64,000 bases of DNA from Eledone cirrhosa (GCA_964016885.1 OZ024751.1:24056001-24120000); one strand, 5' to 3'. Counted from the first letter of the stretch, positions 9,265 to 63,916 are shown. Notes: generated by a model not told the origin, from the sequence alone. Program-made: numbers and translations.

Positions 9265-9740
9265 ATTGTTTCTGAATTTGTTTATGAATTTGTTTCTGAA
9301 TTCTTTATCTGAAATCGTGTGTTGAAACCGATATTGTTATACTTTGGGAGGGTCATGTTGCCAATAAGAAACACACGCACCAGTTGCTTTCACTTCAATT
9401 TATTATATATTTATAAATTTATAAATTTATAAATTTACAAATCTACAAACTTATAAATTTCTGGTTGGTTGGTTGGTTCCACAACCAGATAGTTGTTTAT
9501 ATATAGTCATAGTCCTTTCGTCACACACTCTGTGACCTCTTCAGTGACTGGGGATTCCTTTCTTTGTTTCTGTGCCTTTCCTTTCTTCTGTCCTACGCCA
9601 TTTTGTGGAACCAACCAACCAACCAGAAATTTATAAGTTTGTAGATTTGTAAATTTATAAATATATAATAAATTGAAGTGAAAGCAACTGGTGCGTGTGT
9701 TTCTTATTGGCAACATGACCCTCCCAAAGTATAACAATAT
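9265..9740 (-). mobile_element. Family G (TA)n-inserted element with inverted partial copy
   Basis: Main copy ~9265-9600 and inverted arm ~9605-9740. Other copies at 17841-18230 and 62925-63055. Confidence 0.8.
9505..9549 (-). ncRNA. Type I hammerhead ribozyme, family G
   Basis: AGTCA-CTGAAGA-G-GTCACA(gagtg)TGTGAC-GAAA-GGAC-TA-TGACT: 5-bp stem I, 6-bp stem II, intact core. Confidence 0.8.
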
Positions 9741-12079
9741 ATATATATATATATATATAATATATATATATATATATATATATATATATATATATATATA
9801 TATATATATATATATATTTATATTATATATATACATATATATATATATATATATATATATTATATATATACATATATGTGTGTGTACATAAAACGTGTAT
9901 TTCATTCAGATCCCATCTTTGAGATTTCACTCAGTAGGTAGTGATCAACCTGATGTTATAAATAAAGAAGAGAAGAGACACGTGGCTAAGGTACACAGAG
10001 TAAGATTGAAACCGGCGTCAACTGATAATTGCGAAGCTTATATCTTACTTAAGCATAACACTAAGCCATCGCCTGCGTATATTCAAACTAGAGTATCTCT
10101 TATTACATAGTTACAGCTCCCAGGAAAAGAAACATGCAGCCAAGGAGTAAATTATAATAAACAACCTGTAAATGTACTTTAAACAATCATCCCATAGCGT
10201 ATGATATTCCGCTACATGAATTGTAATTAACGAATGCTATTCTGAAAACGCCTTTCCTTTATTCATTCTAATTTATATGTTAATGAACTTTTATGAAGAA
10301 CTTCGGCATTAGGAAATACTCTTGTGGCACTGTTAGTGTACGTAGTTTTATTCAAAGCACATAATTATTCCACAAGATATTATGGTGCTATTTAAATGAT
10401 TGTATGTAAAATGTAAACAAGGAAATGAAATAAATAAATAAATAAGATAAAATATATAAATACATACAAAATTATAAATAAATGAAGTCAATAAATTCAT
10501 AAGATAAAATCAAAAATAAATAAATAGATTCATTTTAAAATAATAATATAAATAAAATAAATAAAATTAAAAAATGAATAAATTAAAAAAATTAAAATAA
10601 GATAAATAAAATAAAATTAATTAATTGTGTATGTGTGTGTCTGTATGTGTGTGAGAGTATTTGTGAATGTATGTGACGGTATTTCTATATCGATGTGTGT
10701 GATAGGATTTCTGTATGTATGTGTGTGAGAGTATTTGCGTATGTATGTGACGGTGTTTCTAACTGTATATGTGGGAGAGTATTTGTGTGAGAGTATTTCT
10801 GCATGTATGTGTGTGAGAATATTTGCGTATGTATCAGAAAATGTCAGCATTTATGTGTGTGTCGGTGTGTGACGATGTGTGTGTCGGTATGTGTCAGTGT
10901 GTGTGTCTGTATGTGTATGTATGTGTCAGTGTGTGTGTCTGTATGTGTATGTATGTGTCGGTGTGTGTGAAGCTGTATGGTCATTAATTAAAGGTCATAT
11001 CATTAAATTTCTTATAATAGCTTTTGTGTACTATTGATTCTTGTTATCATATCGATAGAATAATTGATTCCTATATATTAAGATATATGTGCGTCTGTAT
11101 GGGTGTACGCACGTGTGTGTTTTTATGTATGTTTGTGTGTATGTATATGTGTATGTATGTGTGTATATATGTATGTTTGTATGTATGTGTGTATGTATGT
11201 GTGTATGTACATACACAAACTCACACGCGCACATATATATGTATGTTTCACTCTATCTCCCTCTCTCTCTTTCTCTCTCTCTCTTTCTCTCTCTCTCTCT
11301 CTCTCTCTCTCTCTGTATATATATATATATATATATATATATATATATATATAAGAGGGCGGGGAGTCTAGAAGTTGAACAACATGAATATTTCTAATTA
11401 GACTTTGATGAATAATATTTTAAATATTTATTTATCAATAACTAATCGATTACATCTTGTCAGTCGACATCGGGTGCTTCTGGTGTTTTCTCGGTCCCCC
11501 AAGTGTCGTGAGGAAGGCGTCTAGTCTGTCGAAAGGGCTCTGTGAAGAAATGTGGCGAATGAGGCGGATATCGCTCTATATTTTCGAAGGCAAATCTTCA
11601 CTATCCTGTCTGAGGGCCCCAGCTGATACGTACGTACCGTCCAACCAACAGGGCAGAGACTTCCCCATCTCTAAATCACACCCCCTTCATATATATATAT
11701 ATATATATATATATATTTAATACATTAACAGAGAAAGCCTGAAGCAATACTCCGACCGGTTTCCATCTCACTCAACAAACATTAAGATATACCTTAGTAT
11801 AATCCCAATTATACGTTTGGGGTGCTAACTATACGTATTTTGCGGATAGCCAGTTGTATTATTTTATATGAGACATAATTAAATACATCTCTCTTTCCAA
11901 GCGATCGTTTCATTATAAGTTTTCTACAAATTGGGAAAATAATGTCCAGGTTATGTAGAAGCCTACACATAGTCCATAGGAATATATGTAGGTGGGCACT
12001 TGTAAATCATCAGTGGATGCCCGACAATATCGATATATATATATATATATACATATATATACATATATATATATATAGA

Positions 12080-12360
12080 ATTAATAACAGAACACACTCA
12101 CTGTTTGGTTGGTTTTCGCTTCTCGCTGTCTTTTATATCTGTCTTTTATATCTGTCTTTTATATCTGTAAACTTACTCGGTCCTCAATGATGCCATTGAC
12201 GGGCCGACGGTCAAAAATAATACAGATACAATATAGACACAAACACATATATATAGTTTACATAATTTACATAAATCTTTCGTTGCACATCTGCAACATC
12301 GTCAGTGGTGTTATATTTTCCTCCTGTTGTGTTGTATGTCTACGCCATTTTTTATTCAGT
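12080..12360 (-). mobile_element. Family M element (distant relative of G) with hammerhead core at ~12270-12309
   Basis: CTGACGA-T-GTTGCA(gatg)TGCAAC-GAAA-GATT-TA; stem I is decayed. Homologous to 26770-27090. Confidence 0.65.
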
Positions 12361-12387
12361 CTGTCTATATATTTACAATATTAATAT

Positions 12388-12773
12388 ATACAATATATTA
12401 ATAAATGGAAACTATATTTATAAAACCATAATTATTTTATTCTATATATTTCAAGGGCAATCAAGGCAATTTTGGTGCACTTTCATCAGATAAAATACAA
12501 AATATATTTTATAAATGTTAACGTACCTGTAGTAAAACAACCTTGACGGTTGAAGGTTCGCTGGATAGTGGTATTTTATCTGATGAAAGCGCACCAAAAT
12601 TGCCTTGGTTGCCCTTGAAATATATATAATAAAATAATTATGGTTTTATAAATATAGTTTCCATTTATTAATATATTGAATATTTACTCCACTAAATTGT
12701 TGAGTGCTTTATATCAGTTATAAACATGTTTAAGCTTGTTGAAACCCAACAAATTAAATATAACCTCTGCACA
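12388..12773 (+). mobile_element. Family C element: inverted arm plus main copy plus tail
   Basis: Arms 12391-12498 and 12571-12679 are reverse complements, and a ~90-bp tail runs to (TA)n. A related truncated copy lies at 40025-40160. Confidence 0.8.
12572..12636 (+). ncRNA. Minimal type I hammerhead ribozyme, family C
   Basis: TATTTTAT-CTGATGA-[AAG...CTT stem II]-GAAA-TATATA-TA-ATAAAATA: perfect 8-bp stem I and palindromic loop III. The mirror copy at 12433-12497 (-) has U16.1>G. Confidence 0.88.
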
Positions 12774-62180: not shown

Positions 62181-62924
62181 ATATATATATATATATATAT
62201 ATATATATATATATATATATATATATATATATATATATATATATATATATATATATGGGTGTGTTTGTGTGTGCGCGCGTGTGTGTGTGTGTGTGTGAGT
62301 GTGCATACGTGAGTGTGTGTGTGAAAGGTAGACGGAATCAACAAAGCAAACAATACAGTACAATAAGTCAACGTTACGAATTCTAGTCCCAGATAGACAA
62401 GACTTAACATTTTGTATCATATATATATAGTATAAAAGAAAAAACACAGGTAGGCATTTTCTCTTTTATACTTTATACTCCAAGATTGAACGGAATTCTT
62501 ACAAACTTGTGGAGTTACCCCGTTGAAACAGTTCATGAAACTGGGTTTCTTAACCACGAACTGGATCACAATTAGCAATTTTCTGCTTCCCTAACTATAT
62601 ATATATATGTATATATATATATATATATATTATCGGATTTACAGAAACCTAGTGAAGATGTTATATAATATTATGTAATATGTCCATGATGGTCAAGGTA
62701 ACAGTCAAACTTTTCCCTGAGTCGGTTTTTTTCGTCGTTATGCTCCTAGCGGCTCGCTTTTCGGTCGCTGGCTTCAAATTTGCATAGCTGTCTAAACGTA
62801 ATGTTATAACTCTAAGGTAAAATTCCTTATTGAGTGCTTTTGGCTGCAGTTCCCGACAGCATTCATTAGCTTGCCCGCAACCAGAGCTTCGATTATTCTG
62901 TACTACCTTCTTATATATATATAT

Positions 62925-63055
62925 ATATCGTTTCTGAATTTGTTTAGCAAGATTCTTTATCTGAAAACGTGTGTTGAAACCGATATTGTTATACTTTGGC
63001 AGAGTCATGCGTGTGTTTCTTATTGGCAACATGACCCTCCCAAATTATAACAATA
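62925..63055. mobile_element. Family G short copy with inversion
   Basis: Tail plus terminal segment and inverted terminal segment, as at 17841 and 9265. Confidence 0.78.
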
Positions 63056-63747
63056 TATATATATATATATATATATATATATATATATATATATATATAT
63101 ATAGAGAGAGAGAGAGAGAGAGAGAGAGAGAGAGAGAGAGAGAGAGAGAGAGAGAGATGTGTGTGTGTGTGTGTGTGTGTGTGTGTGTGTGTGTGTGTGT
63201 GTGTGTGTGTGTGTGCGTGTGTGTGCGTCTGTGTGCGTGTGTGTGTGTCTGTGTGTGTCTGTGTGTGTGTGTGCGTGTGTGTGCTTGTGTGTGTGCGTGT
63301 GTGTCTGAATTTTTATTCGATTTCCTTGGTATAGTTTGATTTTTCTCTAAATGTCTATCGTCAGTTCCAGCAATCACTCACTAGACGCATTTGTTCCAAT
63401 AACCAATAGTTTCGATTCAATACTACATATTTAAGAATTCAGTCGGCATTCATCCATCAAATTGATGTAATAGTCTTCGATTCTGTTTATAATATACCAT
63501 TTCCATTAACCCTTCAATTTCAGCCCAAAGCTAACAATGTGGTTATATATATATATATATATATATATATATATATATACATATATGTATACATATATAT
63601 ATATATATATATATATATATATATATATATATATATATATATATATATATATATATATATATATATATATATATATATATATATATATATATATATATAT
63701 ATATATATATACATATATATATGTATATACATATATGTATATATATA

Positions 63748-63916
63748 TGTCGATTTAAAACTGCACTATCCACAAGTGTTTTTAACCTTCATATCATGTC
63801 CTCCTATTTTATCTGATGAAAACAAAAATATTATTGCATGATGATATTTGTTTTTGAAATGCGCATAATAAAATACATGGAACTCATTTAACCATCTTTT
63901 GATCTTATATATTATG
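63748..63916 (+). mobile_element. Family B tail-less copy
   Basis: Same 5' end as the copies at 24460 and ~14632; flanked by (TA)n. Confidence 0.85.
63805..63875 (+). ncRNA. Minimal type I hammerhead, family B
   Basis: TATTTTAT-CTGATGA-AAACAAAAATATTAT...ATGATATTTGTTTTT-GAAA-TGCGCA-TA-ATAAAATA. Confidence 0.9.

Follow-up and report, generated by a model that had tools for sequence, protein, structure and literature searches.

The DNA considered here is a stretch of 64,000 nt from Eledone cirrhosa (GCA_964016885.1, OZ024751.1:24056001-24120000), called the window at its full length, which carries many short islands of repeated DNA in and beside (TA)n tracts. An earlier note, made from the sequence alone, had listed 26 hammerhead motifs in these islands, and all 26 coordinates fall in repeat families bearing predicted type I hammerheads. 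With considerable confidence, we read the islands as the 3′ ends of many families of Penelope-like elements (PLEs), together with a few non-coding passengers, which sit at (TA)n, carry hammerheads that are likely self-cleaving, and probably arose by target-primed reverse transcription that stopped early. The evidence lies in coding frames upstream of the hammerheads, in 3′ ends that abut (TA)n, and in a nearly strict pairing of two kinds of end in inverted inserts.

Predicted hammerheads in the window and in the genome

A strict type I descriptor (C3:G8 or U3:A8 core, helix I of at least 4 bp, helix II, GAAA, helix III and NUH) matched the window 13 times and was passed by 12 of the 26 listed sites, whereas dinucleotide shuffles of the window (two sets of 60) gave means of 0.07 and 0.17 matches, with maxima of 1 and 2, and the reversed or complemented window gave none. 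The claim of more than 20 type I folds was thus borne out, with motif counts about 50- to 100-fold over the shuffled controls. The number of families had been put too low, at about 10; self-BLAST of the window combined with genome searches sorted the listed sites into 13 families and found 3 that had been overlooked, 16 in all. Cores with one mismatch were not above chance in the window (5 vs 1.8–2.7), and decayed sites were therefore judged by family membership. An Rfam scan of the window returned no hammerhead family among the best 150 of 206 matches, and its microRNA and sRNA matches turned out to be TA repeats and palindromes.

Pairing was assessed in a search that picked motifs without asking for helix I, which avoids circularity. 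Of 29 distinct groups, 12 still formed at least 4 bp of helix I, whereas 5000 partner swaps gave a mean of 1.6 and a maximum of 7, and the helix I positions of these groups showed 3–6 pair types each. A double change in helix I between two subfamilies of family H likewise keeps the pairing, and the view that stems differ between families yet still pair has held up.

The first half of the window holds mainly families A to G. Family A1 forms an inverted insert with a long and a short end at 9280..9736 (minus strand; strict hammerhead 9505-9549) and, as a second subfamily, another at 17844..18227 (plus strand), whose hammerhead at 18015 is decayed. Two minus-strand stubs belong to family A2 (12078..12348, in which the hammerhead has a 2-bp helix I, and 26773..27058). 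Family C is an inverted insert at 12386..12774 with an intact hammerhead on the plus strand (12572-12636) and a decayed copy near 12433 on the minus strand. Family B is represented by an inverted insert with both hammerheads mutated (14466..14856), a minus-strand stub at 24206..24456 with an intact strict hammerhead (24330-24400), and, near the end of the window, a plus-strand stub at 63749..63915 with an intact hammerhead (63805-63875). Family D, absent from the earlier list, is an inverted stub at 16788..16920 (minus strand; strict hammerhead 16820-16860). The family E stub at 23086..23477 (minus strand) has a U4A core and further copies at 30433-30545 and 39874-39935, and the family F inverted insert at 30180..30405 (plus strand) has G5A in its own hammerhead, the family core being intact in 18 of 20 matches. 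Family G, an inverted insert with a C3.A8 core and long helices II and III at 50023..50642, also occurs as an inverted stub cut within the hammerhead at 13747..13937, identified by self-BLAST and end mapping, and as similar stubs at 17054-17431, 27537-27733, 52392-52555, 54394-54537 and 60236-60353.

Towards the other end lie a family H stub at 50950..51045 (plus strand; intact hammerhead 50973-51023) and an inverted insert of its young subfamily at 53585..53783 (hammerhead 53649-53701), with family I between them at 51310..51874 (minus strand), a 462-nt non-coding unit in 1.2 head-to-tail copies whose hammerhead at 51381-51462 has a GUC site. Family J is an inverted insert with two intact U3:A8 hammerheads (52014..52283). 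Family N, another unlisted family, is a plus-strand stub at 53168..53510 with its motif region at 53168-53318 and a helix II region of about 115 nt. An older subfamily of family K left a minus-strand stub at 55343..55505 (intact hammerhead 55387-55442), and a young one left an inverted insert with two intact hammerheads at 55992..56327 that is 99–100% identical to other copies. The family L inverted insert at 55612..55865 has a core that is usually 8 nt long, with one extra base, and the family M inverted insert at 61462..62178 is a Neptune-type 3′ end with U3:A8 and helices II and III and no convincing helix I. Family S, the third unlisted family, is present as a 5′-cut copy at 49645..49745 (plus strand), a candidate permuted hammerhead in S-G-C order, and as a complete copy at 8590-8720 (minus strand), outside the range that the earlier note covered.

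Several of these families deviate as a whole from the strict type I form, namely E, G, L, M and A2. U4A was found in 19 of 19 copies of family E that were read, and C3 is combined with A8 in 27 of 33 family G copies, a relative of which has U3:A8. The first core strand of family L usually has eight bases, and the U3:A8 core is common to families J and M. A literature search found nothing relevant on U4A/G8A hammerheads. These variants are of interest either way. Should the U4A and C3.A8 families prove unable to cleave, their high copy number would support the idea that transposition can do without cleavage; should they cleave, the range of working cores would be broader than is now accepted.

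The genome was sampled in 60 stretches of 10 kb (600 kb) at round coordinates on 12 contigs of the 3.0-Gb AT-rich assembly. The sample held 59 strict matches against 0–3 in five shuffles, and two tandem arrays account for 12 of these matches. With two stretches flanking the window excluded, 57 matches in 58 stretches (580 kb) correspond to 0.98 per 10 kb (bootstrap 0.64–1.38), from which we estimate a total of about 300,000 strict folds, in a range of about 1.9–4.1 × 10^5, per 3-Gb genome. Hammerhead density in the window is about twice the genome average, and (TA)n makes up 8.7% of the window and 5.9% of the sample. Motifs with a long helix II like that of family N occurred 5 times in the 600 kb and not at all in 3 shuffles. 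Up to 120,000 retrozyme copies are on record for the axolotl, which makes the number estimated here high but comparable in order. In this respect the genome amounts to a vast natural collection of hammerhead variants.

Coding and non-coding families

No Penelope-type reverse transcriptase (RT) or endonuclease frame lies within the window, as the earlier note had said; the window does hold a fragment of an unrelated long interspersed element (LINE) at 43599-45315. Extension of the families in the 5′ direction through the genome did lead to Penelope-type GIY-YIG frames. By tblastn with endonuclease pieces, or by Pfam in the case of family M, 9 of the 16 families have a GIY-YIG-type endonuclease at a constant distance upstream of the hammerhead in at least two independent loci. 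The endonuclease is of Neptune/Nematis type 371–400 bp upstream in A1 (8 loci), and lies 456–498 bp upstream in A2 (4 loci); it is of Hydra type 947–1075 bp upstream in B (3 loci), 200–220 bp in D (4 loci), 899–928 bp in E (3 loci), 894–1119 bp in G (7 loci), and 1213 and 1299 bp in K (2 loci, one with a TA run between). Families J and M each have a Neptune-type endonuclease upstream in 2 loci. Across families, the hammerhead sits 0.2–2.1 kb downstream of the RT/GIY-YIG frame.

The family M frame matches Pfam RVT_1 (E 3.6e-11) and GIY-YIG (E 5.5e-7), and uninterrupted 796-aa RT plus endonuclease frames of this family occur elsewhere in the genome, at least 7 among the 120 candidates scored out of 21,712, one of them checked individually. 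The linker before GIY-YIG reads CX2-5CxxC in A, J and M, which is the Neptune/Nematis type, the two clades not being told apart by it, and CxCX5C in B, D, E, G and K, as described for Hydra (PMC8557442); CxxC and CxH around a conserved E and N can also be read in the Hydra-type peptides. The Hydra-type assignment is a motif reading against that paper combined with tblastn. Links of two further families to an endonuclease, family I at locus L148 and family H at locus L280, were rejected because of a TA run or inversion between the two.

Since family M has uninterrupted 796-aa frames, and other families run into coding frames, most sites are best regarded from their sequence as 5′-truncated copies of coding elements rather than as passengers moved in trans. 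The earlier suggestion that any mobilisation would occur in trans is therefore mostly wrong, and its alternative of PLE termini or mini-retrozymes on (TA)n divides accordingly: PLE termini stand, and mini-retrozymes apply to family I and the unlisted family S. At locus L021:1350-2900, 1–2 kb of TA/CA low-complexity sequence lies in the 3′ region of a family M element, so that the element itself spreads microsatellite-like DNA and, with it, new target-like sites.

Family I is a 462-nt circularly permuted unit, as indicated by its period in the window and by wrap-around in other copies. Its longest ATG frame has 51 aa, it has no match to Penelope peptides, and no full dimer was found among 22 loci. 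These features of the sequence fit a retrozyme of the non-LTR type (lacking long terminal repeats), a class described as Penelope passengers (PMC7229834; bioRxiv 10.64898/2026.07.22.740005). Like the animal non-LTR retrozymes in the accessible parts of those reports, family I is non-coding, measures a few hundred nt per unit, carries a type I hammerhead in copies placed head to tail, and has a proposed dependence on Penelope; unlike them, it occurs mostly as dispersed copies of less than one unit or of 1.2 units in (TA)n, with inverted footprints of Penelope style and not in long arrays. Such arrays do exist in the genome sample, where L054:8749-10000 and L071:455-3850 are near-identical tandem arrays of 311-nt and 482-nt units, each unit with a strict hammerhead, as in classical retrozyme arrays.

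Family S is a young TA-inserted repeat with tandem units of 605–617 nt, in which the blocks follow one another as cleavage site, GAAA and CUGAnGA, with an 8-bp helix I and a 5-bp helix III; its two subfamilies differ by one double and two single changes that keep pairing. In block order and in helices I and III it resembles the type-SGC hammerheads of Eckert et al. 2023 (PMC10085705, as far as its accessible text goes). It departs from them in being an animal repeat rather than a metatranscriptome sequence, in that the G and C blocks allowed no helix II of the ordinary kind to be drawn between them (one adjacent pair by eye), and in not exceeding chance by descriptor alone (2 matches vs 0–2 in 6 shuffles). 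We therefore treat it as a candidate permuted S-G-C hammerhead only.

Insertion ends and proposed paired priming at (TA)n

In each of the eight families examined, 3′ ends fall at two fixed places 34–98 nt apart, and the shorter end falls on a TA-rich spot inside the element. An inverted insert nearly always combines one long end with one short: unselected DNA gave this combination in 39 of 39 cases, and all loci together in 153 of 159, where independent choice would give at most half; ends without a partner comprise 23 long and 18 short. The inverted inserts have unequal arms, centres that vary from copy to copy, 5′ truncation and a tail at one end, and single-arm copies are common. The long-plus-short pairing suggests paired priming on both target strands. 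Two priming events offer a simpler explanation than a single cDNA folding back on itself, which would be unlikely to terminate precisely at the second of the fixed ends. The system is known in general, and the long-plus-short combination, counted as a nearly strict rule, is the mechanistic regularity added here.

The association with (TA)n had been described as motifs lying nearly all inside or abutting such tracts. Nearness is real, 25 of the 26 listed sites lying within 300 nt of (TA)5, but 52% of random positions are equally near, which makes it weak evidence by itself. Abutment of the ends is far stronger: 104 of 119 element 3′ ends in unselected DNA have (TA)4 within 12 nt, compared with 229 of 6152 background positions (3.7%) and, for a control repeat resembling a short interspersed element (SINE), 8 of 142 ends. 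In family I, (TA)4 likewise adjoins the variable 5′ junction in 14 of the 18 copies that are not inverted, and this favours (TA)n as a target over (TA)n as a tail.

From these observations a mechanism may be put together. The endonuclease of the element would nick (TA)n on both strands, and a protein dimer would begin two cDNAs, one per internal start site; each would usually abort within 100–600 nt, and the two aborted pieces would be joined 5′-to-5′, giving a palindrome with a one-sided tail. The type I hammerhead, which from its predicted fold likely self-cleaves in the element RNA, lies 20–250 nt from the start sites, just upstream, and would thus be kept in almost every aborted copy. Given this position, no selection on the stubs would be needed to explain the high density of hammerheads. 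Helix III is short and self-complementary in most motifs, and these would be expected to cleave as dimers or with help from protein, as in systems described previously (PMC4209133, PMC11167929). New inserts bring fresh (TA)n-flanked neighbours, which would cause inserts to cluster. The stubs themselves are probably inert and decaying, to judge from the many single changes among copies. The family G insert at 17054-17431 contains at its centre (17170..17381, minus strand) a 212-nt A1 piece with 98.6% identity to 17919-18130, a copy 540 bp away; it has no TA flanks, and is possibly a local template capture at the 5′-to-5′ join.

Much of this agrees with published systems, which we compare here as far as the accessible parts of the papers allow. 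In work with purified protein of the Anolis element Poseidon (Frangieh et al. 2024, PMC11167929), both strands of AT-rich DNA were cut and extended, two internal RNA start sites bounded the tail, a dimer was predicted, and the hammerhead of the element was protein-assisted, with cleavage unnecessary for insertion. The families here resemble it in the two internal start sites bounding the tail and in the AT-rich target. The start sites of Poseidon are reported not to be homologous to the cut DNA, whereas here the short ends fall on TA-rich spots able to pair with the target, and the pairing of two start sites within one insert is not addressed in the accessible text of that work. As in the Hydra and Neptune/Nematis elements with endonuclease described by Craig et al. 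2021 (PMC8557442), the families have C-terminal GIY-YIG domains with their linkers, hammerheads near the 3′ end, insertion in (TA)n, inverted 5′-truncated copies and tails that are often one-sided. In that account, Hydra-type elements form few families outside cnidarians and tails measure 30–40 bp, while here the Hydra type, by motif reading, is abundant and tails measure 34–98 nt.

Minimal type I hammerheads were described in the pseudo-LTRs of metazoan PLEs by Cervera and De la Pena 2014 (PMC4209133), who found that they cleave weakly and as dimers. Shared with those elements are the many heterogeneous families, the lone motifs of truncated elements, the opposite-strand pairs 100–700 bp apart, and motifs with a palindromic helix III, an extra base after A9, a U3-A8 core or a 2-bp helix I. 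About 2,000–9,000 minimal motifs per genome were counted there, against about 3e5 strict folds here, although the descriptors differ; several families here have long helices II or III, and family-wide U4A, C3.A8 or 8-nt cores do not appear in the accessible text of that study. The general picture has thus been published already, including heterogeneous families, lone and opposite-strand motifs, U3:A8, the preference for (TA)n, inverted copies and one-sided tails (PMC4209133, PMC8557442). A search of the literature that lacked most subscription journals found no paper on cephalopod hammerheads, on twin priming by PLEs or on the long-plus-short rule, though supplements may list such families; a repeat annotation of Octopus vulgaris (PMC13282606) reports recently active Penelope-like families, and the accessible main text contains neither 'hammerhead' nor 'ribozyme'. 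How the tandem and inverted structures of PLEs form, and what their hammerheads do, are stated as open questions in the field (PMC8557442, PMC11167929), and the long-plus-short rule offers a sharp prediction for the existing in vitro Penelope system.

Weighing the alternatives

A number of results weigh against reading the islands as paired, early-stopped PLE insertions. Six of the 159 inverted pairs break the long-plus-short rule, four being long-long and two short-short, the latter from one duplicated locus. A Hydra-type endonuclease was found upstream of family C at 1 locus only, a 72% relative, and 443 bp upstream of family L at 1 locus only; genome searches found no coding parent for families F and H, and none is in hand for family N, whose parent was not sought. 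Neither of the two Hydra-type endonuclease pieces tried matched Pfam at E<=0.01. An automatic count of 5′ junctions in 8 families placed just 12 of 69 at (TA)4; on inspection, most of this count consisted of diverged subfamilies running on upstream, short inverted arms or locus edges, and with the count so confounded it is family I and published work that carry the case for targeting. A search for empty pre-insertion sites of 155 inverted inserts with usable flanks yielded none, the 6 matches obtained being uninformative. As to the ribozymes, the strict descriptor rejects 14 of the 26 motifs listed, which are decayed copies (G5A at 14657 and 30305; broken helices at 12433 and 14503) or family-wide variants (U4A at 23106/30449, C3.A8 at 50453, an 8-nt core at 55717/55797, a 2-bp helix I at 12270/26977 and no convincing helix I at 61671). 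Minimum-energy folds gave the full three-helix junction in just 1 of 10 motifs folded, a family G copy; such poor predicted folding is expected of dimer-type motifs, yet is not supportive.

It seems to us unlikely that most families are instead non-autonomous retrozymes, whose small circular RNAs the hammerhead would release and Penelope enzymes would copy in trans. Family I with its non-coding permuted unit, family S with its tandem units and the two arrays of the sample speak for this view, and the retrozyme-like families have in common the two-end, TA-abutting footprint, but nine of the 16 families extend into coding frames, and the other 15 listed-family queries yielded no short same-strand tandem period. 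Still less probable is the view that the elements themselves make or seed the (TA)n tracts as tails, through terminal addition or slippage, instead of meeting them as existing targets, and so generate the TA microsatellites of the genome. The short ends do lie on TA-rich spots inside the element, some copies have just a few TA bases at one end, and (TA)n makes up 5.9% of the sample; the truncation points of family I nevertheless lie at (TA)4 in 14 of 18 cases, and a preference for (TA)n is reported for the Hydra, Neptune and Naiad clades (PMC8557442, in its accessible part). Target and tail can both be partly true, with a short TA target that later expanded.

Miniature inverted-repeat transposable elements (MITEs) of the Tc1/mariner group are palindromic and sit in TA, as do many of these islands. 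A DNA transposon of this kind with terminal inverted repeats, its hammerhead folds arising by chance or as passengers, would nonetheless hardly produce unequal arms, variable centres, frequent single-arm copies and arms that reach RT/GIY-YIG frames, nor motif counts so far above those of shuffled sequence; the pairing of ends and the upstream coding frames largely refute this reading, and we give it next to no credence.

Within our preferred reading of PLE 3′ ends at (TA)n, a stronger form would make paired priming obligatory, with one dimer starting at two fixed sites, one for each strand of the (TA)n target, so that every inverted insert would combine a long end with a short one. It would also count, among the roughly 300,000 hammerheads, active odd-core ribozymes (U4A, C3.A8, extra base) as well as a hammerhead of permuted S-G-C order in which helix II is unusual. 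We regard this stronger form as possible but put it forward tentatively, as it is rather more likely to fail in some part than to hold as a whole. In annotation, the stubs can readily be mistaken for SINEs, MITEs or microRNA hairpins.

The remaining features of the window are minor. Further TA-flanked palindromic stubs lie at 60-285, 14153-14348, 22507-22830 and 60777-60954; they are repeated in the genome and have no hammerhead in the part that is present, and that at 60777-60954 has sequence in common with the family F tail. Tandem arrays without hammerheads occur at 24915-26074 (units of ~166 nt) and at 56575-57326 (units of ~151 nt), the latter derived from a SINE-like repeat. The 5′ side of a family G stub at 1555-1761 is joined to the end of a LINE-like fragment at 2000-2474, whose frame 2000-2434 has no Pfam match and presumably resembles a CRE-type restriction-like endonuclease. 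A broken L1/Tx1-like LINE spans 43599-46026, with an endonuclease match at 43599-44171, the start of an RT recognised by eye, and a duplicated 260-nt 3′ part. An intronless 335-aa frame for a G protein-coupled receptor (Pfam 7TM_GPCR_Srw) lies at 33997-35004, in the part of the window that is poorest in TA islands.

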